Shown: positions 41,122 through 61,089, counted from the stretch's first letter. The stretch is DNA of 64,000 nucleotides from Candidatus Berkelbacteria bacterium RIFCSPLOWO2_01_FULL_50_28 (GCA_001774395.1 MEZX01000002.1:302101-366100), one strand, 5' to 3'. The notes: generated by a model not told the origin, from the sequence alone. Program-made: numbers and translations.

Positions 41122-41174
41122 ATTCACCGTGGTTTTCTCCCATTCGGAGCTTGACAAGTTAAAGCTATTTGTTA

Positions 41175-41837: not shown

Positions 41838-41844
41838 ACTCTAA

Positions 41845-42410: not shown

Positions 42411-42441
42411 TTTCGTATTTACATTTTAATTTTACCACTAG

Positions 42442-42468
42442 GTCGTCAAGAAAATTAACAGGTTCAAA
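42442..42468 (-). promoter_or_regulatory. shared upstream box TTTGAACCTGTTAA-N6-TTGACGAC (coding-strand view), copy before the four-helix-bundle gene
   Basis: Same box at 61062..61089 upstream of the 13-kb giant gene. Contains a -35-like TTGACG. Confidence 0.4.
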
Positions 42469-42516
42469 TCGCTTTGAGGTTTTACGAGATCCTACCGGAA
42501 GAAAACGATCAAGTGT

Positions 42517-43886: not shown

Positions 43887-43994
43887 CCAATTGATAATTA
43901 GCTCATTGTAAATTTATTGTAAATTGCAAAATTGAGAACTGAAAATTATTACCCATTTTCAAACTATACACCCCAGTTGTCTCAACTCAACACG

Positions 43995-45182: not shown

Positions 45183-45186
45183 GTCT

Positions 45187-46350
45187 TTAGAATGTCCCCG
45201 TTGTAATATAGTCGGCAGTACCGGTGTAGGCACCAGCTGCCTGGGCACCGTCAGCCGATAATCTCCAGCCTATCTTGGAGATATCCGTTACCCCAACGGC
45301 ACTCTGCATAATCGTTGAGGGCGTTTGAGGACCAGATAGATCGGCAACTAGTTCGAACTGCTGAGTACCTCCGCCGCACTGCCCAGCCGCTGCCCAGTCG
45401 GCGTTAGCAGTTTCAGCAGCGTTTCCGGTCGTGTCGTCCATACAGATAGCGTACCCATTAAAGGTGGCAGTTCCCCACGGAGCAGGATCGGTTAAAGTAC
45501 AAGCGCCATCGCAGGAACCAACTGCAAATGGATTAGCACCAGCATCCAAACCAGTGACAGTGTAAACGGTGACTGTATAACCCGTACCGGCATTGGTAGC
45601 TACGGTCAGTTGTTGGCAGATATCGTAAAATGTTTCTGTGGATATTGTCCCGTAAGGAATTGTTGTTGCCGTACTCGCAGCGGGTTTCGTGCCACCGGTG
45701 GTTGTGCAGTTTGCATCCGCGGCCAGACCGGCCACTGTTAGGGTCAAAACTTCATCGATTGTGGCCGAAATTGCTACACCTGCTGTTAGAACCAAGACAG
45801 TATCCTGAGAGTCATCGCCGTAACTGCCGGCCACATTCAATTGAGAGGTGCCCGCTGTGGTGTTGACAATCCGGGTGGTCCCGCCAGCGGCGTTGGAACC
45901 GAACTTCATGGTGATGGCCGTACTGGCCGCCTCAGCGGTGTAGCCACTACAGGCCGTGAAAGTCACCACCTGGGAAGCAAGCACATACTCGACACTATCC
46001 GTTGCGGTACAAGAAGCTATTAGTGTTTCGCTAGTGGCGCCGTTCACAAAGTCAACATCAGTCAATGTTAAGGTCGTCAAGTTGTACCCAGCCGGGAAGG
46101 TAACAATTACAGTTTCACCAGCAATGAAAGTAGTGCTTCCAGAGAGATCGAGAACTATCTCGTGGTTAGACGCAGTCGAAGGGCGAGAGTCACTCAATGT
46201 ATCCTTCAAACTGGTTGGGCGAACGGCAAAAGCGGATTGAATCCCGAAGGGCTGGGCAATTATAGCAATTAAGCTTAACACCGCTAAAACAACGCGGTAG
46301 CGATTAGCTAATTGCTTAGTTTTAGGGGCTACAAGGTAACCACGAACCAT
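45187..46350 (-). CDS. secreted ~387-aa protein with shared C-terminal domain, copy B2
   Basis: Paralogous to B'; N-terminal SLKDTLSDSRPSTASNHEI, C-terminal IGWRLSADGAQAAGAYTGTADYITTGTF. Start ambiguous between GTG at 46395 and ATG at 46350; ATG preferred. Confidence 0.5.
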   Translation of the reverse strand: MVRGYLVAPKTKQLANRYRVVLAVLSLIAIIAQPFGIQSAFAVRPTSLKDTLSDSRPSTASNHEIVLDLSGSTTFIAGETVIVTFPAGYNLTTLTLTDVDFVNGATSETLIASCTATDSVEYVLASQVVTFTACSGYTAEAASTAITMKFGSNAAGGTTRIVNTTAGTSQLNVAGSYGDDSQDTVLVLTAGVAISATIDEVLTLTVAGLAADANCTTTGGTKPAASTATTIPYGTISTETFYDICQQLTVATNAGTGYTVTVYTVTGLDAGANPFAVGSCDGACTLTDPAPWGTATFNGYAICMDDTTGNAAETANADWAAAGQCGGGTQQFELVADLSGPQTPSTIMQSAVGVTDISKIGWRLSADGAQAAGAYTGTADYITTGTF

Positions 46351-46431
46351 TAGAGCGACCTGATTTAACAATGATTTTATTTTTCCCCCTCGCACATACT
46401 ATATATACATTGAAGCGTATCCAACAGATGT

Positions 46432-46444
46432 GTCAACCCCGCAC
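46432..46444 (-). promoter_or_regulatory. GTGCGGGGTTGAC motif copy (minus orientation), just downstream of the GIY-YIG gene and upstream of the B2 gene
   Basis: Plus strand reads GTCAACCCCGCAC. Contains a -35-like TTGACA. A TATATA lies 23 nt downstream on the coding strand. Confidence 0.4.
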
Positions 46445-46447
46445 TTT

Positions 46448-46705
46448 TCAACCGTCTTGAAGGCAATGCCCAATACGCTTTTTCAACCTTGCGTAAGACT
46501 GACCAAATTGTTTGAGCTTCTTCTCTCGATCGAGCGCATCTAGTCTCGAGGCATAACCTTCAAGGTAGACAATCTTCCACGGTCGGTAAGGTTTTGTCGC
46601 AACTGACTTACCTTCGTTGTGATCGAGTAGTCTTTTCCGCAAGTTGTTCGTCTGCCCGAAGTAAAGTCGCTGTTCTTTTCCGAGTAGTACATACACCCAA
46701 TGCAT
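46448..46705 (-). CDS. GIY-YIG nuclease-family small protein (YhbQ/UPF0213-like, ~85 aa)
   Basis: MHWVYVLLGKEQRLYFGQTNNLRKRLLDHNEG...RPWKIVYLEGYASRLDALDREKKLK. Start trimmed to the family-typical M-x-W-V-Y-V-L. Confidence 0.7.
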   Translation of the reverse strand: MHWVYVLLGKEQRLYFGQTNNLRKRLLDHNEGKSVATKPYRPWKIVYLEGYASRLDALDREKKLKQFGQSYARLKKRIGHCLQDG

Positions 46706-46738
46706 AAGTTGATTGTAGCAACTTGCGACGGTTGAATA

Positions 46739-46758
46739 GTGCGGGGTCAACCCCACAC
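46739..46758 (-). promoter_or_regulatory. GTGYGGGGTTGACCCCGCAC palindromic copy of the motif, upstream of the GIY-YIG gene
   Basis: Near-perfect inverted repeat GTGTGGGG-TTGA-CCCCGCAC in the coding-strand view. Confidence 0.4.
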
Positions 46759-46770
46759 TAATTTTTCCGA

Positions 46771-47721
46771 TCATCTGCTCATAGCTCGCAAAAGTTTAGC
46801 TCGACGCCGGCGGAAGTACACGGTTGAACCAACCGCCAGAATTGCCAATAGCAGGACTATAATAATGAAGGGCCAGGGGATGGAGACAAATCGAGAACTG
46901 GCCACTAAGATTTTTCCGTCTTGCTTAAGAGTGAATTTGGCGTCGTAGACCCCGGGCCAGATTGTGCCGGTATAGGCGCTGATATATTGCCTCGAAGACT
47001 CGGGCATTAGGACCGAGCTCGCTAACTGGGTGACCATCTTTTGCTCACCCCAGGTTGGCGTTAAAGTCAGATCGCCATCAGCGAAAAAGAAAAATCCGGT
47101 CGGGTTACTAATTTCGGCCAGGAACGGTACCGGTGTGCTAACAACTATTTTCGGTGTCTGGAACGAGCTGATGCTCAAGCTTTCAATGGTTGGCTTCGTG
47201 GTCGAATCGACCGAAAGCAAAAACGAGGTGCTTAATGCTGGAATAATTCGGGTATTGGCGTTTTCGTCAAAATAATTTGCTGGTAGGCGAGCCTGGAAAA
47301 TCAGGGCGGCGCTGTAACCACCCGGGACAGTACCCTTGGGCGCTAGGATGGTTACCTGAACTTCTTTACTGCCTTGGGCGTCCAAAATGAGGTCTGGACT
47401 GTCGAGCGTTAGCCATTCAACACCTGAGTGTGGCCTTGGCTCGGCCGTAAATTCGGGTGATCCGAGGTTGTTAATGCCACTAATACTAAATTTAGAAGCG
47501 GACAATGGGATTGGTTCCTTCCCAAGATTGGTAACTTTAATCTTCACGATCGTTTTCTCGCCTGGTTTAACGGTCTGCTGAACTAAGCCAGGGCTAATTG
47601 ACAGTGTCGGGCTAATGGCGCCTTGGCCTGACGCTGACAAGGTGAATGCAAATACCGACATTAAGATTGCCAGCGTTAGAATTTTCAATTTACAATTTAC
47701 AATTTTATCGCGTTCGCTCAT
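46771..47721 (-). CDS. DUF916/DUF3324-like cell-surface protein, copy A2
   Basis: Start set at MSERDKIVNCKLKILTLAILMSVFAFTLSASG (signal peptide). Upstream ORF extension is AT-rich repeat sequence. Block VTILAPKGTVPGGYSAALIF. C-terminal TM plus tail RRRRAK. Confidence 0.5.
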   Translation of the reverse strand: MSERDKIVNCKLKILTLAILMSVFAFTLSASGQGAISPTLSISPGLVQQTVKPGEKTIVKIKVTNLGKEPIPLSASKFSISGINNLGSPEFTAEPRPHSGVEWLTLDSPDLILDAQGSKEVQVTILAPKGTVPGGYSAALIFQARLPANYFDENANTRIIPALSTSFLLSVDSTTKPTIESLSISSFQTPKIVVSTPVPFLAEISNPTGFFFFADGDLTLTPTWGEQKMVTQLASSVLMPESSRQYISAYTGTIWPGVYDAKFTLKQDGKILVASSRFVSIPWPFIIIVLLLAILAVGSTVYFRRRRAKLLRAMSR

Positions 47722-47892
47722 TTTTCGTTCTGGCGAACTCAAAATCATTGAATTTTCAATCATCAAATTTTAATTTATCGGTTTTACCACATTCTGTCAT
47801 TTGAAATTCAATCGAAATTTGAAATTCGCCTCTCGACTCCGCTCGAGGCGACCTGAGCACCGTCGAATGGTCGAAATTTGAAATTACTTTTC

Positions 47893-50800
47893 TCATGGAA
47901 AAGTTGCTGTTATCACATAAACGACGTCAGCTGTGTAATCGCCGTTAGCTTGGGTGTTCGATGGGTAGAGGCGGTAAGTAATATCGTTGGTGGCGCCTGT
48001 GGCCGGTGCGGTTCGGTCGGCAACTGGGTCGCCCGGGCCGGTGTGAGAAAAGCCAGCAAATTTAGCCCCGCCGTTGGTAAAACGATCAGCCGTGCCGCCG
48101 GTTAACGATGAGTCGTCGGTTGAATAGCCAAAGCCGTAAGACCCAGCACTGAAGGTTGTCGGAGTCGCGTTCGTACCCGTCCAATCGGCTAGTGTCACCC
48201 CACCGAAGCGGACATTAGTCATCGCTTGGGTTGACCAAGCGTAAACGACATAGCCGTTCAAGGCATTACTAGAAGCGGTCAGCGTCGATGTTTGATCACT
48301 GGGGTTGGAGCCGGGGTTAATGGTACCGAAGTCTTTCGAAGTGGAGTCCAGGCCTAGGGTTAGTGTCTGACCAAAAATCCAGTTAACGGTGTTACCGCAG
48401 TCGGTGTTGGTGCCGTCGCTAGCGATAATTGTTGATCCGCCAGAGGCATCAGATCGAGAGACATTAACATACGAGGTTTTTATTTGGTCGTTACCAACGG
48501 CAGCGACATTTAGGAGCCAACTACCGGTAATGGCGGAGTTTCTGAAGTATAGTCTCGTTCCAACCGCTTGCCCGTTCCAGTTCATATTGTTAATCGTATA
48601 GGTGGCGCCGGATTCGTATTCTACTTTCACACTAGCTGTGGTGATGGTGTAGTTGTTGGTGACGGTTGCGGCGGCGTTAAAGTCGACTCCTGCCACCCAG
48701 CCCGTTCGTTCACAGTCGGATGCAATCGTGCCGGAGCTGTTAGTAATGGTCAGGTCGTAAAACGCGTTGGTTGTCAGCATCCCACCAGACAAGGTTTGGG
48801 TACTGGTGCCACTCAAAGTGGTCGTGCCGGTATTAGCGGTAAAGGTACCCGAGTTAGCGTAGTTGCCTTTAATTGCAAATGTTGCGGCTGAGGAAGCTTG
48901 GTAAGTTTGATTAGCTCCGATAGTAAGGTTGCCGGTAACGGTGATGGCAGGATCACTCGTTTCAGCATTAACAACGGCTGATCCAGCGCCAGTCAGGGTG
49001 AAATTGCCTAAAACTTCAGTTCCAGCACATGCGTTATGTACTAAGTAGCTATTAGCATAGAAAAGGTTGTAGGTGTCAACTTCGATATCGTATACAGTTA
49101 CGGTCTCACTCACTTTTTGGATACTTGTAATAGGTTCCGTTCCAGAATAGGTGGCAAGCAGATCGCCAACCCGCAGTTCCTCAACAGCTTTTGAGCTGTG
49201 GTCAGCCATAATAAAGACGTGATTTGCTGTGGCCTGCACCTGGTTGTTAATGATGTAGTACGCATCTTTAGTCCCAATAACTGTTCCAACAACTGGAGAT
49301 ATGACTACTTGGTTACTACTGAGGTCGTAGGATTTGACAAGGTCACCTTCTTTAAGCTCTTCAATTGGCGTACTTCCCGTGGGGGTAAGTACTTGGGTCC
49401 CAGCAAGGAAGGACGTGGCCGAAGTGGTCATTGTGTAGGTCGGTGTACCAGAGGCCGGGCTGGTTTGGAGGTTGTAATAAGCTCTCGTGCCACAACCACT
49501 AGTGATGTTGGCGCTAGTGGTATTCTCGTAGCTAATCGTGGAAGCGTTGGCTGTAAATAACCCGGTCTTTGAGAAAGGAGTACCGCTACCAGTTAAGTGG
49601 TAAGTGCGATTGCCACCATCAAAGGTGGTGGCGGCCGAAGAAATACTCATGACGCTACTAACCGTAATATCTCCGGTTCCACCAGTTTGAGTGGTAATGG
49701 TAGCGGCGGGAGAAGCGGTAAACGTAAGGCTACTAAACGTCCAAGCGGTTGAGCCAGAAGTGGTGCCAAAGTTTTTAGCGCCTGCCACACTTTGGGTGAA
49801 TGTGCCGCCGGTGAGGTTGATGATACCTGCAGTTCCGGCGACGTTACCATTGACAGTAATATTCTGAGTACCGAGCAGCGATCCGGCAGTCATCGTCAGG
49901 TCGTTGGTAACAACCAAGGCGTCCTGAGGTGCCCAGCCACCGCCCGAACCGCTGAAAGTTAGGTTGTAGAATGAGTCACCAGCAGATTGGATAGTCTTAC
50001 TAGTGGCGGTTGCGTTAAAGATAAAAGTAGATGTCCCAGCGTTAAACACCGCATTACTTTCATTCGTAAAATTTGTTCCGACATAGACTGTTGAGGATCC
50101 GGCGGTAAAAATCGGTGCCCCGGTATTACCAGCTACTATAAAAGTCCCGACAGTAAGAGTTTGGTTGGCGGTGTCAAACTCACTATTTCGAGAGTTTCCC
50201 CAGCCAAACCGTAACGATCCGGTGATGGTAGTTGTTCCTGCCAAGGAGATTTTATAGCCGGTGCTGATATTGTCTGTAATGGTGGTATTGTAGGTAAACG
50301 CCGGGAGGGTGAAGTTGGCAGATCCGCTGAAGTCGATGCTTCCATTACCGAGTCCAAAAGTTCCAGCAGGGTCAAGACTGAAACTCCCCCCAGTTTTGTT
50401 CATACCTTTTGAATTAAAGTCAAAGGTTCCTGTCCCGAGAGTGAATGTGCCGTTATGGGCAGCACCGTTGTTTGTTATCAGTTGTGTGGTGTTGCCACTT
50501 TGGCCAACGGTCAAGTTGTAAAATCTGGGCTCCCAAGCATTTGTCGAGCCATTTTTGATAGTTTTTGTACCCGTCCCATTCATCACAACCGTTGAGGTAC
50601 CTTCGACGATACTGACACTGTCTTGAGCAACTGCACTAGTATCCCAATTACCGGAAACCGTAATAATTGAAGCCCGTTCTGTGAGAGACCAGGTGCCGGC
50701 GTTACCTGTCAGGTTGCCGCCAATAGTTAGAGCGTAGTTAAAGGTAGTATTGGTATCAAAAGTGCCGTTAGTAATATCGAAATTGTTAGTGACGCTCATC

Positions 50801-53800
50801 GCGTCTTGGAGCGTCCAGCCCCCACCCGAACCGTTGAAAATAATATTATATAATGCTGAGCCGCCAGTCATGGTTCCAGTGAGGGTTCGGCCGGTACTCG
50901 TTGAGCTGAAGGTCACTGTCCCTGTGCGAGCGGTAAAGGTACCGGAATTTGACCAGTTACCCCCAACTGTTAAGGCATAAGGAGTGGCCGTCACATCAAA
51001 CTCACCCGCGGTGATAGTGAGATTACCACCATTATCTGTAAGGGTTGCTTCCTCTAGCACATAAACCTCGGAACCGTTATTAACGGTTAGGTGGTGGTAG
51101 GTAGCGGACTGAACGGTTGAGTTGCCACCAGCGTTGTTGCCGGTGTAGGCGAAAGTGGAGGTAGCGGCAGTTAAGGCTCCAGCCGGGGAGGCGAGCAGTT
51201 GGAATGAGTCACCGGTTGTGCCACTTAAAGTCCAGGTGCGGTTACCAGCATCTAACGTTGTGGTGGCTCCAGAAGAATCACCGGATTTTCCAACCCTCAA
51301 AATGTCACTGACGGTTATTCCACCACTTCCACCTGTTTGGGTGGTAATAGTTCTTCCTGCTGCTGGGGCACCGAGCGAGTTAGAAAAAGTTAGATCATAA
51401 AATGTCCAAGCAGTACTGCCACTTGTTGTGCCAAAGTTTTTATTAACCCCTACCCGCTGTTCAAACGTCCCCCCAGTTAAGCTGATAACCCCTGAGGTTC
51501 CAGCGACATTGCCGTTGACGGTGATGTTTTGGGTACCGTTCAAGGTGCCAGCGGTCATCGTGAGGTCGTTAGCAATTGCCACGGCTGCATCAGGTTGGAC
51601 GGTTGCGGCTCCGTTCACGATCACGTTGTAAAGGGTCTGGCTGTTAGGAGAGTATGTCGAGGTACCAGTCGACGGGGCAAAGGTGAATGTTGAAGTGCCG
51701 TCATCGACCGCTAATGTTCCGGTGCCGTTGACGAACTTAACATGGCCGGTTGCTGAGATGAAAGCGGTTTGGAAATTGGCAGTATGAGTTCCGCCATTGG
51801 AGTTGACGTAAAAAGTGTCGGTAGCACTCGCGCGATTGAAGGTGGCGGTGCTTGATCCCCAATTCGAACTCGTGGCGCCATTGTCGGTTGAGTCGCCCTG
51901 GACCCATTTATCTGCGTTAATGGTGTAGTTTTGGGTATTAAAGGTTGCCGTTCCCGTAGCGTCTGCTTTTACCTGCGTGTATCCGCTGGTAGTAATATTA
52001 CCCCCGACATTAAAAGTCACCAGTCCCGCGACATCGCTGTGCATCAGGATACTCCAGGTGCCGTAGTTGGTGGCACCAGTGACGGTAACAGTCGCGGCGC
52101 TTAGTTTACGCAACTGGAAGGTGGCATTAGAACCAGATAGGGTTGCTCCTGTTCCTAATACTAAGTCGGCTCCAGCTGTTCTAAACAGTTCAAATTCACA
52201 GGTGACCGAACACGTCATCGTGCCGCCACTGGCATCACCGATGGTTAAAATGCCAAAGACATCGGTTCGGGCTCTGGTCATCGTGGTTGTTTTGGTGTTG
52301 TAGGCAACGGTCAGGTTTTCAAACTGGGTCGTACCCGTACCTGCGATATTGCCGTCACCATTAAGCTGAACGGTTGAGCTGTCGCGGGTGAAGACACCGT
52401 TTAGGTCCACCGTCCAGTGGCGACTGACGGTGATTGTTGAAGTCCGGGCTCGGAAAACAGCACTAGCACTACCAGCGATTGCGACATCACGGGTAACGTT
52501 AACGGCGTGGTTACTAGTAGTGGTGTCAAATGTTCCGAGAGTAATAGTAAGATCGTTAGTGATGATGACCGCGCCACTAGGTGTTACTGTTCCCCCAGAG
52601 CCGTTCAAGATCACGTTATATAGAGATTGACCATTCGGAGCGTAAGTCTTAGAACCGGAAGTATGGACCCAGGTAATTGTCGAAGTTCCAGGGGTTACCG
52701 TTATAGCGGGAGTGCCGTTAATAAACAGAACGGCGCCGGAAACCGTCACTGACGAGCTACCAAGATTAAGGGTACTGCTTGTTCCGCCGTAGGTAGCGTG
52801 AGGAAGGATGGAGTTGGTTGTACTACTCAAAGTAACGGTGCTAGAGCCGAAGCCAACAGCAACCGGGCCATCACGCCCAGCATTGCCATCACCGAACTGC
52901 AAAGTAGCCGCGGTTAGAGCGAAGTTTTGGGTGTTGACAGTTGTTCCAGTTACAGCCGTATTGGCCGCAACATAGACACTTCCGGTAGTTGTAATATCAC
53001 CAGCGAAATTATAAATGCTGTTATTAGCAGTTGCGTACGGTTCAATGGCCCAGTTCCCGTAATTGCCACCGGCCATTGTGAAAGTGGAGCCAGCCCCTCC
53101 GTTAATAAGGAAGCTCATTACAGAGCCACCAGTGAGCGTGGTAGCGGCGCCAAAGACGAGAGGAGTTTTGCTAATACTACCAGCGAGGTTAATGTACGAG
53201 GCGGCCTGACTGACCGTTCCCCCATTCAGGGTCATCACTCCATTAACTTGGTTCATACTGGTGCCGACGGTAATCGTTTTACCCGAGCCGGCCAACTGAA
53301 GGTTGTACATCTGGCTAGCAGAGTTGAGGGTACCGGTGTTGTCAGCCGTACCAGTCATATTAACCGTTGAGGCAGTGCCTTCGGTGAATTTGTTGCCAGT
53401 ATCGTTAAAATCGTTACCAACAGTAATTGTTGAACCGTTACCAATCAGAACAACGCCGGCAGTGTTAGCTAGCGTCAGGTCTCGAGCGACGTTAACGGCG
53501 TAGTTTGAGCCGGTCGTATCAAGCGATCCGTTGGTAACTGTCAGGTCTCGGCCGGTGCCGGTTGTACCTTCAAGGACGAAGGTTTCGGAGGAGTTGTTGG
53601 GGATTAGGTCGTAGTAAGTTGCCGACTGAATAGTTGTACTGCCAGCACCGTTATTGCCGGTGTAGGTGAAGGTTGAGCTGGCGGCGGTTAGTGATCCGGC
53701 GGGGGAAGCAAGTATTTGGAAAGAGTCACCAGTAGTACCAGACAGAGTCCAAGTGCGATTGCCGGCATCGAAGTAAGTGCCACAACCGTCAGCGGCCTTA

Positions 53801-56800
53801 CCTATTCTCATAACATCGCTAACTGTTATTCCCCCTGATCCGCCGGTTTGAGTCGTGATGAAAAATGCGGCACAGATTGGGGAGTTAGGATTCGAAAATG
53901 TCAGATCGTAGAATGTCCAAGCGGTTGAGCCGCTCGTTGTCCCGAAGTTCTTGGCCGCCCCAACTCTTTGCTCAAAAGTCCCACCCGTCATAGTAATCGT
54001 TCCTGCGGTGCCAGCAACGTTACCACTAACAGTTACATTTTGTGTTCCATTCAAGTCACCAGCCGTAATAGTAAGATCATTAGTAACGGTTAGAGCGTCA
54101 ACAATAGTGATATCGTCGCCAGTATCGTCAATAATAAGGTTGTAAAAACTCTGGCCGGCAGAGGTCATGTCGCCATCGGCAGTTGCGTTACCCATTGTTA
54201 CAGTTGATGTCCCAGGGGTGATCACGGCGGTATCGAGATTTTCCCAGTTACTACCTATGGCGTAGCTCGCCGAGCCCAAACTCATTGCAACTGTGCCGGC
54301 AGTGGATGTAAAACGGAAAAGTGCTGTCACGATCCAGGCAGTATTGTTGACGGTATTATCAATTGTTAGTGCACCGGTAATATTATTAGTAGTTACAAAT
54401 GTATAAACATTCATTGTTCCGGCTCCGATTGTGTAGGTTTGAGTTCCAGACGCTGGGCGGAAGTAGAGGTTACCAGCATAAGTATAGGCAGGGATGGTGG
54501 TGCTGCCAGTCATGGAATAATAGAAGTTGGGGACACTAATTGTGCCAGTGTATGAATAGGTAGGAGTTGCATTAGTAACATGGAAGCAACCTCCACTGCC
54601 GCCAATAGTACCCGCAATTGTTAATGTGGTGCCGGTACCGCCGTCGTAATAAATCGCTTGGGCGCAGCCGGCAACGCTGTTGAGCGTTCCTTGGATGTTG
54701 AGATCACTGATGACATGGATATCTGTTGCTGTCTGTGTGTAAATAGCTCCACCAGAAATAGTTAATTTGTTAAAGTGAGTGCCCGAACCGCCGTTGGTGG
54801 TAATCGTCTTAGTTGTTCCCGAAAGGACGACTATTGAAGTCCCATAGCCAGTGGCCTGAGTTGTCCAAGTTGAGTTGCTTTGCGTCCAGTTGCCGCTAAC
54901 AGTAATAGTTGAGGCCTGGGCTTTATAGGTAGTGCCGGAGGAAAATGTTAGATCGCCTGCAACCGTTAGGGCGTAGTTACCAGTTGAATCGGCATCTACC
55001 GTGCCATTAGTTAAGTTGAAATTACTGGCAGTCTCAACTGCTGCGCCGTACGTCCAGCCACCACCGACGCCGTTGAAAGTGAGAACATAAAACTTGCCTG
55101 TTGCACCAGTCATTGTCCCAGTGAGAGTTTTACCGGTAGTAGTGGCGTTGAAAGTGACGGTTCCAGAATTAGCTAAGAATGTTCCAGAGTTAGAGTAACT
55201 ACCGCCGATGGTTAAGGCGAAGTTGCCGGCAGTCACGTCTAATGTACCGGCCGTAATAGTTAGGTTGTTCGAAGTGATTGTTGCGGCTTCTAGGACGTAG
55301 ATCTCAGAGCCGTTGTTCGGAGTTAGATTGTAGTAAGTGGTTGATTGAATGATTGTGTTGCCAGCGCCGTTATTGCCAGTGAAGGTAAAAGTGGATGTAG
55401 TGGCCGTAAACGTTGGACTGGCGGTGAACACAAAAGGATTACCGTTGGTTCCCGAAAGAGTGTATGTTTTTGCGTCAGCGTCAAATGAAAGCGTATCGGC
55501 GGTGGCGTCAAGCGTAAAAATACCTGAAACGGTAATCCCGCCACTTCCGGTCGCTGCGATTGCTGTTCCTGCTGAGTACGAAGCAGTTAGGGAAAGGTTG
55601 TTGAAAGTCCAAGCAGTGTTGCCCCCAAATAAAACGGCTCCTGATCCACCAAGAGTAAGAGTTCCGCCGGTTAAATTGATCGTCCCGTTACCTGTTAGGT
55701 CGGGATCGGCACCACCGTCGCCGACGCTAAGGTCTTGGGTCCCCAGTAACGATCCCGCCGTCATGGTTAAATCGTTGGTAGCCGTAACCGCCGCGCTTGG
55801 TGTCCACTCGCCGCCCGAACCGTTAAATGTAAGGTTGTAGAAAGCCGAAGCACTGGTCATGGTCCCCGCTAGAGTATTGCCAGTATCGGTCGCGTTGAAT
55901 GTTATGGTACCGGATTGAGCGGTAAAAGTGCCGGAGTTAGAATAATTGTTGCCGATCGTCAGGGCGTAGTTAGAAACTGTCACATCAAGAATGGCACTAG
56001 CGTGAGTGATGGTGAGATTATTTGTTACAACAGTGTCTCCTTCCAAAACGAAGGTATCAGCGGCGTTTAGCTCCAGGTCATAATACGAGCTGGTCATTGA
56101 TTGGATGGTCGTATTCCCTCCAGCATTAGCTCCGGTGTAATAGAGTTTAGAAGTACCACCTGTTAAAGCTCCGGCGGGGGAAGCCAAAAGTTGGAACGGA
56201 TCACCGCCAGTACCAGATAGGGTCCAAATTCTATTGCCGGCGTCCAAGGTTGCCGTACCTGCGTCACCGCTCACACCAACTTTCAAAATCCCACTAACTG
56301 TAATCCCGCCAGAGCCGCCTGTTTGAGTAGTAAAGGTAATTCCTGACACACCGGTGTTGGAAAAAGACAGACTACTAAACGTCCAGGCCGTAGAGCCCGA
56401 CGTGGTACCAAAGTTTTTAGAGGCAGCCGCAGTTTGAAGAAATGTTCCACCAGTTAAGCTAAAAGCTCCGGCTGTGCCAGCGACGTTACTATTAGCCGTG
56501 ACGTTTTGAGTTCCAAGGAGCGTTCCGGCCGTCATCGTTATATCGCCATTTATGTTAACGGCCGCGCTTGGTGTCCACTCACCGGCAGCGCCGTTAAAGA
56601 TGAGGTTGTAGAAAGACGACGAACCGCTCAGAGTTCCTCCGAGCGTATTGCCCGTATCTGTGGCGTTGAAGGTGACGGTGCCACTACGAGCCGTGAAGGT
56701 GCCGGAGTTAAGGTAATTGCCGCCGATTGTGAGGCCCCAGTTGGAGCCACTAACCGCATCCAAAATAGCAGATGCCTGAATGGTTAAGTTTCCAGTTGCT

Positions 56801-59800
56801 GTAGTAGCTTCCTCTAAAACATAGGTGTCGAAGGAACAGATCGCGGAGCAGCCTATATCAAGATTGAAATATGAGCCAGCCCCGCCTCTTTCTATAGTTG
56901 TATTTCCCGCCCCGTTCTCACCCCGATAAGCAAAGGTTGATGTCGAACCAGTTAACGACCCTGCTGGAGAAGCCAGGACTTGGAAGGGATCACCAGCAGC
57001 GCCGCTTAATGTCCAAGTACGGTTACCGGCATTGAGAGTTGTTGTCGCTCCGGCGGCGTCGCCGGACGCACCGACTCGAAGAATTGAAGAGACGGTGATA
57101 CCGCCAGAACCACCGGTCTGGGTGGTTACAGTAAACGGACTGGAAGCGTGAGAATTAGAGAAGGTCAGACTAACAAAAGTCCAGGCACTGGAACCGGAAG
57201 TCGTACCAAAATTCTCCGCTGCCGCTACCCTTTGCGTAAAGGTACTTGAGCCGCTCATGGTAATTGCTCCAACTCCAGTGGCGCTACCGTTTACTGTCAC
57301 ATCAACCGAACCGCTCATCGTCCCGCCAGTATTGGAAAGATCATTGGCAACCTGAACAGCATTAGTGCTTAGCGAGAGCGTACTGGCGCCAGAATGAGTG
57401 AGGTTATAGAATTGCTTCGTACTGCCGGTACCGCCGGAAATGATCGTTTGGGTACCGCTGGTGGCGGCAAAATCAACTGTGCCGGTGTCAGCGTTAAAGG
57501 TGCCACCGATACTATTTGTCCAGCTACCTTTGACGGTTAAATTGGCGGCGCCCATCGTCAGTATCCCCTGGGATTGTGAAAACGTGACACTGCCGTTGAA
57601 CGTGACAGTTTGGCCGTTAAGATTGGTAATATTGGCTCGACTACAGCAGTCGCTTACCGTCAGATTGCCGGTAAAGGTTGTAGTCCCTTGGAAAATAAGA
57701 CTATAGGTATTTGGGAGGGAGTTAACCAGGCCGGAGTTATAGGTATAGGCGAGTAGGTTAACGTTGGCAGAGCCGCCGTGGAAGTAGAGCGAGCCGTTAC
57801 CAGTTCCCCAAGTTCCCGCAAGAGAAAGTGGATTTGTCGGCGGAGAAGCCATAAAGAAGGTTTTTGAATTCAGGTCAAAGGTACCGGCCCCTAAGGTCAG
57901 CACGTTTTCAACAGCGAACGATTGTTGCATCTGGGTTGTTTTACCGACGGCCTGACCGACGTTCAAGTTCCAAAAACGGCCTTCCCACGTATTAGTTGCC
58001 CCTGTCGTTATCGTCTTCGTTCCGGTTCCGTCCATGATAACCGTCGAGCCACCCTCAACAATATTGACGCTATCTTGGGCAATCGCTGATGTATTCCAGT
58101 TCCCTGAAACAGTGATAGTCGAGTTACGCTCATTGAGTGTCCATGTTCCTGAGTTACCGGTAAAATTGCCGCCGACAGTTAGGGCATAGTTAAAAGTACT
58201 GTTAGTGTCGAGGGTCCCATTAGTAATATCGAAGTTGTTAGTGACACTCATCGCATCTTGGAGGGTCCAACCACCACCAGAGCCGTTGAAGATGATGTTG
58301 TAAAAAGATTGGGCGTTGGAGGTAATGGTTTTGCCGGTGGCGACGGCATTGAATGTGACAGTGGAAGTTCCAGGCGTAACGGTTATTACCCCGGTGCCGT
58401 CTTTGTATTTTAGGTTGCCTGCTATCGAGACCGATGAAGATCCCAAGTTCAAGGTATGTGTGCCACAGTTCGGACCAACATAAAGTGCGTCGGTAGTGCT
58501 TGTTAGCGATACTACAGATGCATTGAAACTAACTGCCCACGAGCCGGTTCTCGTTGGTGCACAGTCAGCGATAGAAAAAAGGAGAGCAGTAATAGAGTAG
58601 TTACTAGCAGTTGTTGTAAAAGCACTTCCCGTTACACCGTTAGCCGCTTGGAGTTTCATTACCCCCGTCGTGGTAACGTTTCCGCCAAGTTGCCAAGTAT
58701 TGCTGTTGGATGCCGTGTAAGTGTCAACACCCCAGGATCCGTAGTTTCCTCCGGGGATCGTTATCGTCAAGCTAGCAGCATCCGGTCGGAAATACAGATC
58801 TCGATTACCTGTAAGTGTCGTTGCTGAGGCAAAGACTACCGGCGTGCAAGAAATAGTGCAATGAAGATTCAACCAAGACGAGCCTCCTTCGGCGACTGTT
58901 CCGCCATTGAAAGTTAAAACATTATAAACATCGAAGCTGTTGGTTGAGATAGTTGTTGTGAAACCCGATGACCCCCACTGGAGATTATAATACTGACTAC
59001 CACTTGCAGATGTGAACGTCCCGGTACCGGACATAATTACTGTTGAAGTATCGTGGGCAAACTTGTCGCCCGTATCATTGTAATGTCGGGCGATATTGAG
59101 TGTCGAGCTACCAGCGGTGTAAGAAACTCCAGCCGTGTTAGCGAGTGTAAAGTCACGAGTAACAGTTAGATTTTGGTTGCCGGCCGTGATAGCGCCGTTG
59201 GTGCCATTAAAATCATTGGCCACCTCGACAGCGTTACTGAATGTCCAGCCACCAGCGGCGCCATTAAATGTTAGGTTGTAGAATTTGCCAGTCGCGCCGG
59301 TCATCGTGCCGCCGAGGGTTTTGCCGGTGGCAGTGGAGGAGAAAGTTACCGTGCCGCTGGCGGCGGTGAAAGTGCCGGAATTGCTCCAGTTGCCGGAAAC
59401 GGTGATGGCGTTGGTGGTGGAGACGGTCAAAGTGCCGCCGTTATCAATGGTGACCCCAGCGACCGTGACCGAAGCGGTGTCCTCGGTGATATTGTGGGTG
59501 TTAAGAATTTGAACCGTATCGCCCGCTTGAGGCGTAGTGAACCCACAGTTCGTCCAGGAAAGGGCGTCGCTCCAGTTACCGGTGGCGGCTGATTGACAGG
59601 CGTTGTCGGAGGCGATTAACCACGACCTGGGTTCCACCCACTTCGTGGAATTTTCAATTTTCGAATTTTGTCGGACTTCGCCTCCATAGCTTCTTCGCTG
59701 CGCTTCGTCGCTATCAGTTTTCAATGAATTTTCAATGCTTGAATTTTCAATTTCCGCGGGCTTGCCCGCCGTAGTTGCCTCCTTCGCCGAAGTGGCTACG

Positions 59801-60981
59801 GAAGCCGAGTCAACGGAGGCGGGGCCGAGTTCAAATAAAAACGGTGAGATGTTAGGGGTTTTGAAGGAATAAGTGAGGGAGTAAGTTTGACCGGCCTTGG
59901 CATCGATTGTCCAGTGTAGTTTAGTTGGGCTATCTGCGGTCTTTGTTACCTTCGCTTCTGTATCTTTAATCTCAAAATTATTTGGTACAAATTCATCCAA
60001 ACCGTAACTGCCGTCTTTGGTGGCTTCGAAATTGAGGGTGTAGTCGTAATCGACGGGTGGATAGGTTCGGGTGGCGCCGACGCGTTGGAGATAGAAATCT
60101 TGATTGGCTTTGACGCTAAACTGGTCGTGGAGGGTGCGAGTGCCTTCTCCGGCCTTAGCAATGATTTTAACTTTGTAGTTGCCCTCAGCTTTTGGTTGAT
60201 AGTTGGCCTCGTAGTCGGGGCGATCAGTTTTACCGTAAACTTCACAGTCTTTATTGACTCGAACGGTGCCGTTGGCAGTGTCGAGGGTGGTGATTTTGCC
60301 GTTTGGGTCAGTGACCTCAACGGTCATTGCGGCCGTACAAACCATTTTGCCCCTATCGTCGAGCACGGCCAGGCTAAAGAAAGCCTCTTTGCCAACTGGA
60401 TAGACGGCGTAGTCAGGGTTGAAAGCTAACACGCCCCAGAGAACTTTTTGGTCGTTGACCACTTGATCGGTATTTTTCTTGAGGGTTTTGATATCGTAGG
60501 CGCCGGGTGAAAGCTGCTGATTGTTGTCGCTAATCTTTATTTCATCTGGGCTAGCAGTGTCAATCTTGACTTGGTCAGTGATTGTCTCGCCACCAACAGC
60601 TTTAGTTAGAGAGATTTCGGTTTCGCCGACGGCTGTCTTCGGTTGCTCTAATTTAACAGTGTCTTCGGCCGAAACAACTTCGTAATTACCCTTGAAATAC
60701 TCGTTGGGTTGGCTACTACGAGCGGCGACCTCCGCAACGGGAATAAACTGCGGATCAAGTTGGATAGTCTCGGCAACCGTGGTCTGGCTGACGTTGTTAG
60801 AATTAACAACTTCGTTAAGTTGGGCGCGAATTGGTCCAAAGAAGGCCAGCACCCCCAAACCGATGACGAGGGCGAACAGAAAAGAGAAAAACCTGACCGG
60901 TCGAAGGGCATATTCAGACAACACAGTTGCCCGCGTCTGTCGGAATATTCCGTCAAGTCGAGTTTTTCCTGGTATTGGCAT
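47893..60981 (-). CDS. giant membrane-anchored modular surface protein (4,362 aa), paralog of the 27.9-kb gene
   Basis: ATG at 60981, preceded by GGGGAGAGGGGGAG. N-terminal KTRLDGIFR motif plus TM. Same beta-helix-like repeat vocabulary as the larger giant (GGNYSNSGTFTA..., LTGGTFEQRVGAAKNFGTTSGS...). Shared C-terminal domain ending YVITATFP. Confidence 0.7.
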   Translation of the reverse strand: MPIPGKTRLDGIFRQTRATVLSEYALRPVRFFSFLFALVIGLGVLAFFGPIRAQLNEVVNSNNVSQTTVAETIQLDPQFIPVAEVAARSSQPNEYFKGNYEVVSAEDTVKLEQPKTAVGETEISLTKAVGGETITDQVKIDTASPDEIKISDNNQQLSPGAYDIKTLKKNTDQVVNDQKVLWGVLAFNPDYAVYPVGKEAFFSLAVLDDRGKMVCTAAMTVEVTDPNGKITTLDTANGTVRVNKDCEVYGKTDRPDYEANYQPKAEGNYKVKIIAKAGEGTRTLHDQFSVKANQDFYLQRVGATRTYPPVDYDYTLNFEATKDGSYGLDEFVPNNFEIKDTEAKVTKTADSPTKLHWTIDAKAGQTYSLTYSFKTPNISPFLFELGPASVDSASVATSAKEATTAGKPAEIENSSIENSLKTDSDEAQRRSYGGEVRQNSKIENSTKWVEPRSWLIASDNACQSAATGNWSDALSWTNCGFTTPQAGDTVQILNTHNITEDTASVTVAGVTIDNGGTLTVSTTNAITVSGNWSNSGTFTAASGTVTFSSTATGKTLGGTMTGATGKFYNLTFNGAAGGWTFSNAVEVANDFNGTNGAITAGNQNLTVTRDFTLANTAGVSYTAGSSTLNIARHYNDTGDKFAHDTSTVIMSGTGTFTSASGSQYYNLQWGSSGFTTTISTNSFDVYNVLTFNGGTVAEGGSSWLNLHCTISCTPVVFASATTLTGNRDLYFRPDAASLTITIPGGNYGSWGVDTYTASNSNTWQLGGNVTTTGVMKLQAANGVTGSAFTTTASNYSITALLFSIADCAPTRTGSWAVSFNASVVSLTSTTDALYVGPNCGTHTLNLGSSSVSIAGNLKYKDGTGVITVTPGTSTVTFNAVATGKTITSNAQSFYNIIFNGSGGGWTLQDAMSVTNNFDITNGTLDTNSTFNYALTVGGNFTGNSGTWTLNERNSTITVSGNWNTSAIAQDSVNIVEGGSTVIMDGTGTKTITTGATNTWEGRFWNLNVGQAVGKTTQMQQSFAVENVLTLGAGTFDLNSKTFFMASPPTNPLSLAGTWGTGNGSLYFHGGSANVNLLAYTYNSGLVNSLPNTYSLIFQGTTTFTGNLTVSDCCSRANITNLNGQTVTFNGSVTFSQSQGILTMGAANLTVKGSWTNSIGGTFNADTGTVDFAATSGTQTIISGGTGSTKQFYNLTHSGASTLSLSTNAVQVANDLSNTGGTMSGSVDVTVNGSATGVGAITMSGSSTFTQRVAAAENFGTTSGSSAWTFVSLTFSNSHASSPFTVTTQTGGSGGITVSSILRVGASGDAAGATTTLNAGNRTWTLSGAAGDPFQVLASPAGSLTGSTSTFAYRGENGAGNTTIERGGAGSYFNLDIGCSAICSFDTYVLEEATTATGNLTIQASAILDAVSGSNWGLTIGGNYLNSGTFTARSGTVTFNATDTGNTLGGTLSGSSSFYNLIFNGAAGEWTPSAAVNINGDITMTAGTLLGTQNVTANSNVAGTAGAFSLTGGTFLQTAAASKNFGTTSGSTAWTFSSLSFSNTGVSGITFTTQTGGSGGITVSGILKVGVSGDAGTATLDAGNRIWTLSGTGGDPFQLLASPAGALTGGTSKLYYTGANAGGNTTIQSMTSSYYDLELNAADTFVLEGDTVVTNNLTITHASAILDVTVSNYALTIGNNYSNSGTFTAQSGTITFNATDTGNTLAGTMTSASAFYNLTFNGSGGEWTPSAAVTATNDLTMTAGSLLGTQDLSVGDGGADPDLTGNGTINLTGGTLTLGGSGAVLFGGNTAWTFNNLSLTASYSAGTAIAATGSGGITVSGIFTLDATADTLSFDADAKTYTLSGTNGNPFVFTASPTFTATTSTFTFTGNNGAGNTIIQSTTYYNLTPNNGSEIYVLEAATITSNNLTITAGTLDVTAGNFALTIGGSYSNSGTFLANSGTVTFNATTTGKTLTGTMTGATGKFYVLTFNGVGGGWTYGAAVETASNFNLTNGTVDADSTGNYALTVAGDLTFSSGTTYKAQASTITVSGNWTQSNSTWTTQATGYGTSIVVLSGTTKTITTNGGSGTHFNKLTISGGAIYTQTATDIHVISDLNIQGTLNSVAGCAQAIYYDGGTGTTLTIAGTIGGSGGCFHVTNATPTYSYTGTISVPNFYYSMTGSTTIPAYTYAGNLYFRPASGTQTYTIGAGTMNVYTFVTTNNITGALTIDNTVNNTAWIVTALFRFTSTAGTVAMSLGSASYAIGSNWENLDTAVITPGTSTVTMGNATADGDMTSAGQSFYNLIIDDTGDDITIVDALTVTNDLTITAGDLNGTQNVTVSGNVAGTAGTITMTGGTFEQRVGAAKNFGTTSGSTAWTFYDLTFSNPNSPICAAFFITTQTGGSGGITVSDVMRIGKAADGCGTYFDAGNRTWTLSGTTGDSFQILASPAGSLTAASSTFTYTGNNGAGSTTIQSATYYDLIPNNSSETFVLEGTTGTGRDLTVTNGSLDTTGSNYAVNVARDLTLANTAGVVLIGNGSTITVGNDFNDTGNKFTEGTASTVNMTGTADNTGTLNSASQMYNLQLAGSGKTITVGTSMNQVNGVMTLNGGTVSQAASYINLAGSISKTPLVFGAATTLTGGSVMSFLINGGAGSTFTMAGGNYGNWAIEPYATANNSIYNFAGDITTTGSVYVAANTAVTGTTVNTQNFALTAATLQFGDGNAGRDGPVAVGFGSSTVTLSSTTNSILPHATYGGTSSTLNLGSSSVTVSGAVLFINGTPAITVTPGTSTITWVHTSGSKTYAPNGQSLYNVILNGSGGTVTPSGAVIITNDLTITLGTFDTTTSNHAVNVTRDVAIAGSASAVFRARTSTITVSRHWTVDLNGVFTRDSSTVQLNGDGNIAGTGTTQFENLTVAYNTKTTTMTRARTDVFGILTIGDASGGTMTCSVTCEFELFRTAGADLVLGTGATLSGSNATFQLRKLSAATVTVTGATNYGTWSILMHSDVAGLVTFNVGGNITTSGYTQVKADATGTATFNTQNYTINADKWVQGDSTDNGATSSNWGSSTATFNRASATDTFYVNSNGGTHTANFQTAFISATGHVKFVNGTGTLAVDDGTSTFTFAPSTGTSTYSPNSQTLYNVIVNGAATVQPDAAVAIANDLTMTAGTLNGTQNITVNGNVAGTSGVISLTGGTFEQRVGVNKNFGTTSGSTAWTFYDLTFSNSLGAPAAGRTITTQTGGSGGITVSDILRVGKSGDSSGATTTLDAGNRTWTLSGTTGDSFQLLASPAGALTAATSTFAYTGNNAGGNSTVQSATYHHLTVNNGSEVYVLEEATLTDNGGNLTITAGEFDVTATPYALTVGGNWSNSGTFTARTGTVTFSSTSTGRTLTGTMTGGSALYNIIFNGSGGGWTLQDAMSVTNNFDITNGTFDTNTTFNYALTIGGNLTGNAGTWSLTERASIITVSGNWDTSAVAQDSVSIVEGTSTVVMNGTGTKTIKNGSTNAWEPRFYNLTVGQSGNTTQLITNNGAAHNGTFTLGTGTFDFNSKGMNKTGGSFSLDPAGTFGLGNGSIDFSGSANFTLPAFTYNTTITDNISTGYKISLAGTTTITGSLRFGWGNSRNSEFDTANQTLTVGTFIVAGNTGAPIFTAGSSTVYVGTNFTNESNAVFNAGTSTFIFNATATSKTIQSAGDSFYNLTFSGSGGGWAPQDALVVTNDLTMTAGSLLGTQNITVNGNVAGTAGIINLTGGTFTQSVAGAKNFGTTSGSTAWTFSSLTFTASPAATITTQTGGTGDITVSSVMSISSAATTFDGGNRTYHLTGSGTPFSKTGLFTANASTISYENTTSANITSGCGTRAYYNLQTSPASGTPTYTMTTSATSFLAGTQVLTPTGSTPIEELKEGDLVKSYDLSSNQVVISPVVGTVIGTKDAYYIINNQVQATANHVFIMADHSSKAVEELRVGDLLATYSGTEPITSIQKVSETVTVYDIEVDTYNLFYANSYLVHNACAGTEVLGNFTLTGAGSAVVNAETSDPAITVTGNLTIGANQTYQASSAATFAIKGNYANSGTFTANTGTTTLSGTSTQTLSGGMLTTNAFYDLTITNSSGTIASDCERTGWVAGVDFNAAATVTNNYTITTASVKVEYESGATYTINNMNWNGQAVGTRLYFRNSAITGSWLLNVAAVGNDQIKTSYVNVSRSDASGGSTIIASDGTNTDCGNTVNWIFGQTLTLGLDSTSKDFGTINPGSNPSDQTSTLTASSNALNGYVVYAWSTQAMTNVRFGGVTLADWTGTNATPTTFSAGSYGFGYSTDDSSLTGGTADRFTNGGAKFAGFSHTGPGDPVADRTAPATGATNDITYRLYPSNTQANGDYTADVVYVITATFP
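49034..49413 (-). other. Hint (hedgehog/intein) domain embedded in the giant protein; bacterial intein-like (BIL) domain or mini-intein
   Basis: S-FLAGTQVLTPTG...IEELKEGDLV...VYDIEVDTYNLFYANSYLVHN, followed by A-C. About 128 aa. Interrupts the YYNL...TYT...LT(V/G) repeat unit. Local GC is visibly lower than the flanks. Confidence 0.6.
59655..59750. repeat. copy of the ~100-bp intergenic repeat element, lying in-frame inside the giant CDS
   Basis: AATTTTGTCGGACTTCGCCTCCATAGCTTCTTCGC...GCTATCAGTTTTCAATGAATTTTCAATGCTTGAATTTTCAAT aligns with 3370..3475. Encodes a low-complexity linker with three IENS units. Confidence 0.7.
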
Positions 60982-60989
60982 ACCCTAAT

Positions 60990-61034
60990 ACTCCCCCTCT
61001 CCCCTGTAAGTGGATATAAACAAACCCTCCATGT
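60990..61034 (-). promoter_or_regulatory. conserved 45-nt leader/promoter-proximal element, copy upstream of the 13-kb giant gene
   Basis: Near-identical to 41845..41889. Followed upstream by the TTTGAACCTGTTAA...TTGACGAC box at 61062..61089. Confidence 0.5.
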
Positions 61035-61061
61035 AGATTAACAATGCCTAATTTCTGTGGG

Positions 61062-61089
61062 GTCGTCAACCTGATTTAACAGGTTCAAA
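61062..61089 (-). promoter_or_regulatory. shared upstream box TTTGAACCTGTTAA-N6-TTGACGAC, copy before the giant gene
   Basis: Matches 42442..42468. A -35-like TTGACG lies 17 nt before CATTGT. Confidence 0.4.

Follow-up and report, generated by a model that had tools for sequence, protein, structure and literature searches.

The subject of this study is a promoter and leader cassette in the genome of Candidatus Berkelbacteria bacterium RIFCSPLOWO2_01_FULL_50_28, an aquifer member of the Candidate Phyla Radiation (CPR, or Patescibacteria), whose NYN, ClpP and S2 proteins match those encoded in the analysed DNA without a difference. The cassette is sharply bounded, measures about 105 bp and stands in two copies within the 64 kb of DNA that were analysed (the window), one directly before a 13-kb gene and the other before a gene for an NYN-domain protein that is itself followed by a 28-kb gene. 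Gene regulation in CPR bacteria, which are largely uncultured, is almost unexplored, and giant surface proteins probably mediate the attachment of these episymbionts to their hosts; the cassette provides a handle on how the expression of genes of 13–28 kb is started and controlled.

The locus and its repeated leader

The 13-kb gene (47893–60981, minus strand) encodes 4362 aa, and the N-terminus of its product, MPIPGKTRLDGIFRQTRATVLSEYA, carries a motif common to the giant genes of relatives. The NYN gene (41175–41837, minus strand) is followed by the 28-kb giant gene, the conserved start of which, ATGACCGCG, lies at about 41050. The 28-kb protein contains domains of the beta-helix, ConA/laminin-G-like and pentaxin kinds, weak matches to immunoglobulin-like and WxL-interacting-type surface domains come from small genes nearby, and the whole is flanked by housekeeping genes (RF1, rpsB, tsf, frr, rseP, proS, tpiA, pgk, tig and clpP). 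Together, these domains and flanks point to chromosomal operons for giant surface, adhesin-like proteins.

A first-pass annotation of the window had reported a near-identical 45-nt leader before the 13-kb gene and the NYN gene, and such a leader is indeed present at both. The two 45-mers agree at 42 of 45 positions, and a 27-mer within them, ACTCCCCCTCTCCCCTGTAAGTGGATA, recurs exactly on the plus strand at 41846–41872 (copy A, before the NYN gene) and 60990–61016 (copy B, before the 13-kb gene), with no further match in the window at up to three mismatches and 0.00 matches predicted by shuffles. The position given for copy B, 60990–61034, stands, while that given for copy A (41845–41889) was off by one and should read 41846–41890. 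The shared block is in fact about 57 nt long on the minus strand, extending from ACATGG up to both start codons (ACATGGAGGGTT..GGGGAGAGGGGGAGTnTTAGnGTATG); on the coding strand it reads ACATGGAGGGTT[TG/AC]TTT[A/T]TATCCACTTACAGGGGAGAGGGGGAGT[A/T]TTAG[G/A]GTATG, the final ATG being that of the 13-kb gene in copy B and that of the NYN gene in copy A.

Distribution and conservation of the leader

Related loci in CPR genomes and metagenome contigs, designated L followed by a number, were found through homologues of the NYN protein and their contigs, and through degenerate-pattern scans of species-representative genomes and of metagenome contigs (one scan each). They yielded 12 further versions of the leader (L011, L012, L015, L017, L018, L021, L024, L025, L026, L028, L030 and L031), making 14 with the pair in the window; the scan of species-representative genomes found it in four other species, one copy each. 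An nhmmer profile built from 13 versions found no additional diverged copies in the window or in any of the related loci then collected, each of which has a single copy. The absence of the motif from orthologous regions had been named beforehand as grounds for discarding the idea of a functional module, and the orthologous regions of relatives carry it.

All versions share one layout, in which ACAUGGAGGG is followed by an 11-nt U-rich stretch, variable in sequence and fixed in length, and then by some 40 nearly invariant nucleotides, AUCCACUUACAGGGGAGAGGGGGAGUUUUAGGGUAUGGCU, with similarity fading a few codons into the main gene. Mean pairwise identity is 0.89. In L017, L021 and L026, the leader is 93–97% identical to that of the window, compared with DNA-level identities in comparable genomes of 65–67% for tig, 74–77% for clpP, 67–74% for the adjacent penicillin-binding protein (PBP) gene and 65–80% for the NYN gene. 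By this measure, the leader is under stronger constraint than the highly conserved protease gene clpP, and the cassette as a whole shows strong conservation in related Berkelbacteria from groundwater. The most diverged version is that of L011 (9 changes in 45 nt; minimum pairwise identity 0.745), even though the NYN gene of that locus is the closest relative; length, frame, TAG, spacing and purine richness are all kept there.

What follows the leader differs from locus to locus. The first gene may be an NYN gene of either of two subfamilies (about 215–256 aa, or 196 aa), a DUF3800 gene (L021), a 56-codon NYN remnant (L024) or, in the window only, a giant gene directly. The same junction thus stands before five kinds of downstream gene, which marks the element as portable, and as a natural portable expression cassette it is a candidate for heterologous or cell-free use. 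An NYN gene or NYN remnant comes first in 12 of the 14 versions, and a giant gene with the N-terminal motif ..RLDG[IV]YR..RA..SEYA follows wherever the contig continues. At the NYN homologues that are not beside a giant gene (L027 and L029), the leader is absent. The remnant in L024, a Berkelbacteria metagenome-assembled genome, is an open reading frame (ORF; 4654–4824) directly after a fully conserved leader and is apparently an internally deleted form of the 196-aa NYN type, retaining its N-terminus (MASAKLDK..) and C-terminus (..NKQAPGKPGVALL); an intact 214-aa NYN gene comes next.

This distribution bears on one account of the repeat, namely that it is a recent segmental duplication or gene-conversion tract without a function of its own. 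The two giant genes are paralogous, with many shared repeat families, and the promoter occurs three times in the window, as such an account would have it. The element is nevertheless kept in at least 12 other contexts, in which housekeeping genes differ by 25–35% at the DNA level, and it is kept in L024 where the gene behind it has decayed; these comparative data refute the account, to which we give next to no credence. A mobile-element or phage origin was likewise rejected, searches of viral contigs, phage records and plasmid records for the leader having returned no match. Neither an Rfam family nor a published description of the leader was found.

Promoter and predicted transcription start

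The first-pass annotation had also proposed −35 and −10 boxes upstream of the leader, and regarded the pair as a duplicated promoter and leader module. The relevant features, all on the minus strand, are as follows.

61070–61086, minus strand: copy B, conserved upstream block GAACCTGTTAAATCAGG, directly 5′ of the −35 box; common to L012, L018, L024, L025, L030 and the third promoter copy
61064–61069, minus strand: copy B, −35 box TTGACG; TTG invariant in 11 aligned sequences, 17-nt spacer in every version
61041–61046, minus strand: copy B, −10 box CATTGT; weak match to TATAAT, with position 2 (A) and position 6 (T) invariant in relatives
61034, minus strand: copy B, predicted transcription start (A), 7 nt after the −10 box; the A is invariant
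41920–41925, minus strand: copy A, −35 box TTGACA, from the promoter scan
41897–41902, minus strand: copy A, −10 box CATATT; 10 of 12 consensus matches for the promoter, spacer 17
41890, minus strand: copy A, predicted transcription start (A), with geometry as in copy B
42411–42470, minus strand: third promoter copy (GAACCTGTTAATTTTCTTGACGACC...), without leader, directly before a 123-aa PF05635 gene (42039–42410); compared with the promoters of L024, L025 and L030

Both window copies have TTGACR-N17-CATWKT at an identical distance from the block, 6 nt before ACATGG, and every one of the 14 versions stands behind a promoter-like motif of the form TTGACn-N17-CAnnnT. An alignment of 11 sequences has as its invariant upstream features the TTG of the −35 box, the A at position 2 and T at position 6 of the −10 box (A58 and T62), and the A (A69) that lies 7 nt after the latter; three versions added afterwards keep the same positions. 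Invariant bases at fixed spacing across relatives back the assignment of the boxes, and a sigma-70-type promoter (−35 TTGACn, 17-nt spacer, −10 CAnnnT) is the best explanation of the pattern, even though the −10 variants CATTGT, CATATT and CATGGT match TATAAT at only 3–4 of 6 positions. The upstream block may be an UP-element or a factor-binding site. A palindrome at the copy B −35 box (AACCTG..CAGGTT) was considered as an operator and set aside, as relatives do not preserve its symmetry.

The 8 nt between the −10 box and the first ATG of the leader vary freely, except that strong conservation begins at the predicted +1 A and continues from there. So sharp a boundary at this point suggests that the transcript starts at ACAUGG and that the constraint acts on RNA, and it is very probable that the cassette is a promoter with a transcribed leader whose function is exerted at the RNA level.

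The earlier proposal that the module co-regulates the first and last transcription units goes beyond these observations, and the third promoter copy, which has no leader, precedes another gene, that at 42039–42410. The PF05635 product of this gene is a 23S rRNA IVP / Avd-like four-helix bundle, and the upstream block of its promoter is also found in L024, L025 and L030.

A putative 15-codon mini-cistron before the main gene

The leader was first described as a 5′ untranslated region. That it is a leader module stands, and in all 14 versions it also contains an ORF of 15 codons, the AUG of which lies 2 nt from where transcription is predicted to start. The elements of this mini-ORF and its junctions in the window are the following.

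60985–61032, minus strand: copy B, mini-ORF of 15 codons and stop, ATG GAG GGT TTG TTT ATA TCC ACT TAC AGG GGA GAG GGG GAG TAT TAG (peptide MEGLFISTYRGEGEY, then stop)
60991–61005, minus strand: copy B, purine tract AGGGGAGAGGGGGAG, codons 10–14, Shine-Dalgarno (SD)-like in an anti-SD duplex scan
60979–60981, minus strand: start codon of the 13-kb gene, 3 nt past the mini-ORF stop and in the same frame
41841–41888, minus strand: copy A, mini-ORF of 15 codons and stop (peptide MEGYFLSTYRGEGEF, then stop)
41847–41861, minus strand: copy A, purine tract and SD-like site, from the anti-SD duplex scan
41835–41837, minus strand: start codon of the NYN gene (41175–41837, 220 aa, PF01936)

The geometry is the same in 14 of 14 versions, comprising an ATG, 14 further codons, TAG, a 3-nt gap and the main ATG, with no insertions or deletions; the junction is always TAG-NGT-ATG, the gap being GGT or AGT, and the main ATG lies in the frame of the mini-ORF. 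The mini-ORF ATG is 8 nt after the −10 box and has no SD sequence upstream. The purine tract, which was read from the outset as the SD sequence of the main gene, ends 9 nt before the main AUG and is plausible in that role, being the strongest anti-SD pairing site of the leader (−10.5 to −11.6 kcal/mol, predicted with an assumed canonical anti-SD). A second strong SD-like site, GGAGGG at −9.8 kcal/mol, comes right after the mini-ORF AUG and places GGAGG at +5 to +9 of the predicted mRNA. The arrangement has the geometry of a bicistron, with the SD sequence of the main gene embedded in the mini-ORF and the mini-ORF stop within a few nucleotides of the main start. Among the codons of the purine tract, AGG and GGG are the rarest Arg and Gly codons of the genes in the window, accompanied by GGA and GAG. 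TAG is an ordinary stop in the window, where it ends 7 of 25 genes and where RF1 is encoded.

Translation from the very 5′ end of an mRNA would not be exceptional in these genomes. The clpP gene has TACAAT, 8 nt and then ATG in the window, L012 and L024, and the mini-ORF has exactly this −10-to-ATG distance; in tig and the PBP gene, 6–7 nt separate a −10 box from the ATG, and the starts of tpiA and pgk in the window have a similar appearance. Many first genes share this form, with a −10 box 6–8 nt before the ATG and no SD sequence (clpP at 63249, pgk at 9038 and tpiA at 6261 in the window, tig in L012, L024 and L011, and the PBP gene in L024 and L025). This pattern suggests that leaderless mRNAs are common, and perhaps the default, in this CPR lineage. 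SD-led genes are present as well, rpsB and tsf in the window having GGAGG 8–10 nt before the ATG, and operon-internal genes, including the giant genes that follow NYN genes, have SDs of the GGGAGG type. In L011 (1100–1130), the first large gene after tig (1222 aa, N-terminus MAGKTNQRFDGI.., resembling that of the 13-kb gene) stands without a leader cassette and appears to be leaderless in its own right (TTTAAT-AGTAC-ATGGCGGGG), with the same TACATGG context as the mini-ORF.

The best-supported reading, to which we assign not quite an even chance, is that the cassette unites a portable promoter with a leaderless mini-cistron, and that translation of this mini-cistron is coupled to that of the first gene in operons for giant adhesins. 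Transcription would start at the AUG or 2 nt before it, such that the mRNA opens with the 15-codon mini-cistron, and ribosomes would load at the 5′ end of the mRNA, as they apparently do on many mRNAs of these genomes. Having crossed the U-rich stretch, they would translate AGG GGA GAG GGG GAG, which doubles as the SD site of the next gene, and would terminate at the UAG with their anti-SD in a position to pair with the tract; the coupling would consist in a restart at the main AUG, which lies 3 nt further on. On such a scheme, the cassette would serve as a portable, context-independent module for the expression and control of giant surface-protein operons in the Berkelbacteria lineage. The element is new and of a known general kind, and the initial view of a promoter and SD sequence was largely right, having missed the ORF at the predicted 5′ end.

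The GGAGG at the extreme 5′ end invites another explanation, which is that the leader is a stabiliser of the STAB-SD type, in which GGAGG at +5 to +9, a ribosome initiating at the 5′ AUG, or both would block 5′-to-3′ decay and so protect the mRNA for the many minutes that transcription and translation of genes of 13–28 kb would take. Precedents are the STAB-SD 5′ stabiliser in the cryIIIA mRNA of Bacillus thuringiensis, which is reviewed in PMC4113751, and that of hbs (PMC5737220). As in STAB-SD, an SD-like GGAGG stands close to the 5′ end, here a predicted one, ahead of a message that is long or heavily expressed, and is unused for initiation at normal spacing. Its GGAGG core is perfect and invariant in all versions, no ATG, GTG or TTG lies 5–10 nt downstream of it in 13 of the 14 (L011 has a GTG 8 nt after), and the element is tied to exceptionally long genes. 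Here, however, the GGAGG lies inside a putative ORF right after its AUG and accounts for only the first 10 of about 55 conserved nucleotides, leaving the 40-nt second block aside, and its pairing depends on the assumed anti-SD. We consider stabilisation unlikely, and it is compatible with coupling rather than exclusive of it.

Constraint on nucleotides rather than on peptide

Several observations weigh against the coupled mini-cistron. Variable sites of the mini-ORF are distributed over codon positions 1, 2 and 3 as 6:7:7, without codon periodicity; by a hand count, about 7 synonymous and 20 nonsynonymous variants fall on about 9 and 33 sites, respectively (pN/pS about 0.9); and the invariant sites are frozen at all three codon positions. 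From the periodicity and the pN/pS value, it follows that the comparative data give no positive evidence for translation. The copy B −10 box (CATTGT) is weak, and a simple consensus scan called the promoter of copy A and not that of copy B. If transcription starts at the A two nucleotides before the AUG, the mRNA would not be strictly leaderless, and both this start and translation of the mini-ORF are predictions from DNA sequence. Coupling and an SD site also leave the near-freezing of some 40 nt unexplained, and extreme nucleotide conservation in the absence of RNA structure or peptide selection is a gap in our account that is notable in its own right.

The peptide varies across versions as M-E-G-[LYC]-[FKNIV]-[ILV]-[STI]-T-[YWIF]-R-G-[EG]-G-[EG]-[FYVL], residues 4 (L/Y/C), 5 (F/K/N/I/V), 7 (S/T/I), 9 (Y/W/I/F) and 15 (F/Y/V/L) varying freely. 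Length and frame are preserved, as are the AUG and the UAG, the 3-nt gap, the high purine content and most of the nucleotide sequence, and the peptide sequence itself does not appear to be what is selected. A functional peptide or sequence-specific leader peptide was accordingly rejected, as the substitution pattern shows no purifying selection on amino acids. The variable stretch contains stop triplets in the +1 frame in 5 versions and none in the mini-ORF frame, which is weak evidence for the ORF. Two forms of recoding were also considered. Neither a role for TAG as a sense codon nor read-through that would join the mini-ORF to the main ORF is supported, TAG being an ordinary stop in the window and the stop of the NYN gene in L015, although programmed read-through may yet occur. 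An RF2-like +1 frameshift at GGGGGAG-UUU-UAG would not lead into the main ORF and was dropped.

Nucleotide-level constraint might reflect a structured RNA, and the first-pass annotation had suggested structure prediction and covariation analysis for what it thought might be an RNA element. High conservation, a 5′ leader position and runs of G would suit a riboswitch, ribozyme, thermometer or G-quadruplex switch, and these checks gave no support for a riboswitch-like element. Five leader versions fold no better than their shuffles (z from +0.88 to −0.91), RNAalifold on 13 versions predicts −2.4 kcal/mol and 5 pairs with 0 compensatory changes, and neither the window nor 9 related loci gave a match at Rfam gathering thresholds, a permissive scan of the leader (E ≤10) returning only chance-level hits (E ≥3.7). 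Versions differ in the fourth G-run that a quadruplex would use, some having GGG and others GAG. Both the structured-RNA and the G-quadruplex candidates were rejected on these grounds, and we rate any such switch as highly improbable.

The same constraint could instead mark an untranslated, single-stranded 5′ leader that acts as a sequence-specific platform for a trans-acting factor, the ORF being incidental. The factor, which would determine how well giant-gene mRNA is translated or how stable it is, would most obviously be the co-encoded NYN nuclease, acting in autoregulation; other candidates are a CsrA-like protein that binds GGA and a small RNA. Such a platform would account for constraint that falls on nucleotides and not on the peptide, for a leader more conserved than clpP, and for its unstructured, purine-rich character with three GGA/GGAG sites; with an NYN gene or remnant first in 12 of 14 versions, both copies in one genome would share a regulator. 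The partner is so far only hypothetical, however, and the prevalence of NYN genes is offset by the DUF3800 gene that takes their place in L021 and by NYN genes outside giant-gene operons that have no leader. A search of the window for an antisense or complementary partner of the leader found none. A platform would further leave unexplained why the AUG is positioned exactly as in the leaderless genes of these genomes, and we hold this explanation to be somewhat unlikely.

A third way to read conservation without secondary structure is as a site at which the transcription elongation complex is recruited or modified for processive antitermination, as in RfaH-ops, LoaP leaders and put RNA, over units of 13–40 kb. 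The element does lie in the leader that is transcribed first, at the head of operons of extreme length, and known long operons use leader elements of this kind. Inspection of the leader shows no ops consensus (GGCGGTAGnnTG), though, no LoaP- or put-like hairpin is predicted, and the window ORFs that were scanned with Pfam include no NusG/KOW-type match. Antitermination is in our judgement very unlikely.

Parallels with known short-ORF systems

The proposed coupled mini-cistron has close natural parallels in mycobacteria, where operons can begin with short leaderless ORFs (Shell et al. 2015, PMC4633059) and polycysteine leaderless upstream ORFs (uORFs) act as attenuators in Mycobacterium (bioRxiv 10.1101/834739). 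Common to these and to the cassette is a short first cistron at or near the transcription start, without an SD sequence of its own, on a polycistronic mRNA and so placed as to influence the next gene. The cassette differs in that its start and translation are predicted, its ORF shows no enrichment for a single amino acid that would suggest a sensor, and a peptide without detectable selection is encoded by almost frozen nucleotides, in a CPR host and with giant adhesins as cargo.

A synthetic counterpart is the bicistronic design (BCD) of expression cassettes, including the leaderless BCD built for Corynebacterium glutamicum (PMC10367133). It likewise joins a promoter to a short fore-cistron in which the SD sequence of the second cistron is embedded and which has its stop beside the second start. 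BCD works before unrelated genes, much as the identical junction stands here before five kinds of gene. Whereas BCD is synthetic, the present element is natural, and its context-independence is deduced from distribution.

A different use of short ORFs is exemplified by Rae1 of Bacillus subtilis, an RNase with an NYN fold (YacP-type) that cuts mRNA behind ribosomes paused at the stop of very short ORFs and so controls an operon (PMC12407103). Its targets spyA and bmrX have 17 or 26 codons, spyA ends in a UAG that is the pause site, and action on the target depends on the peptide sequence (PMC12407103). By analogy, the mini-ORF could be a translation-dependent switch read by the co-encoded LabA-type NYN RNase, or by the DUF3800 protein where this replaces NYN, a proposal that we consider quite unlikely. 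Ribosomes loaded at the 5′ AUG would pause over the rare-codon, SD-like purine tract or the invariant UAG, and the NYN RNase would cut the leader beside the paused ribosome, thereby setting its own level and that of the giant adhesin. The likeness lies in a very short ORF (15 codons here) that ends in UAG (14 of 14 here) and that, in most contexts, directly precedes an NYN gene. The NYN protein is, however, of the PF01936 (LabA) type, with no YacP/Rae1 match and a sole, weak PDB match to 2QIP (E = 0.02), and the peptide sequence is not conserved. Rae1 is a lead as to how the element might work and not a family to which it would belong. If true, such a switch would tie both giant genes of this genome to one nuclease, and would show the Rae1 principle at work a second time, independently, with another NYN family and in CPR.

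History and neighbourhood of the cassette

Upstream of copy B, the DNA that comes after the PBP gene is orthologous to the stretch that holds the NYN promoter in L024 and L025, where a PBP gene is adjacent too, and L030 carries the same promoter block as copy B, L024 and L025. The start of the 13-kb gene resembles the giant gene that follows NYN in L012, L024, L025 and L026 more than the start of the 28-kb gene does. From the orthology of copy B and the match of the 13-kb gene start, we infer the ancestral order tig, PBP gene, promoter and leader, NYN gene, giant gene. To judge by these comparisons, the cassette has been duplicated in this genome, with one copy now directly before a giant gene and both giant-gene units carrying it. 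In L024 (3048–3716) and L025 (882–1472), a gene for a Y1 (IS200/IS605-type) transposase lies beside the PBP gene, just upstream of the cassette, in differing orientations and positions.

Between the NYN gene and the giant gene, a recurrent motif, TTGTCAAG...CGAA.GGGAG(A/G)A, occurs in the window (about 41069–41174, minus strand), L012, L017, L024, L025 and L026. It is followed by the giant-gene start ATGAC(G/C)GC(G/A)C(G/A)GGTTGAAAAA (MTARVEK or MTAQVEK), from which it is separated in the window by an extra stretch of about 60 nt; the ORF list begins the 28-kb gene at a TTG (41068), the conserved start being the ATG at about 41050. Another conserved block comes after the leader-driven gene in L018 (about 1–280, minus strand) and L021 (about 2140–2410, minus strand) and reads CCTCCGTACCGTCA.GCATTTCAGCC..GGGCAGAGGGAGG.ACAACCTATGC.GTCTTGCGACAACCA.CCACCC.ATACGGGCAGTATTC.GTTGCTATTTCCC; it holds an SD sequence (GGGAGG) and a small ORF that begins M(P/L)SCDNHPP.TGSI.LLFP, and has no Rfam match.

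The interval between the two giant genes of the window (42039–47766, minus strand) contains two PF05635 (Avd-like) genes and a GIY-YIG gene among accessory genes for surface proteins. No reverse transcriptase was detected, and a diversity-generating retroelement is therefore not evident. In L008 (1–2600), a metagenome contig of the same species, groES-groEL lies directly upstream of a 387-aa gene, at the place where the window has the GIY-YIG gene, a 331-aa gene and the 13-kb gene, an arrangement that is either a strain-level rearrangement or an assembly join. Residues 3857–3983 or thereabouts of the 13-kb protein, near its C-terminal part, give weak matches to Hint_2 and intein-splicing domains (E = 1e-6 and 1e-4), and this region could be a Hint-type autoprocessing module.

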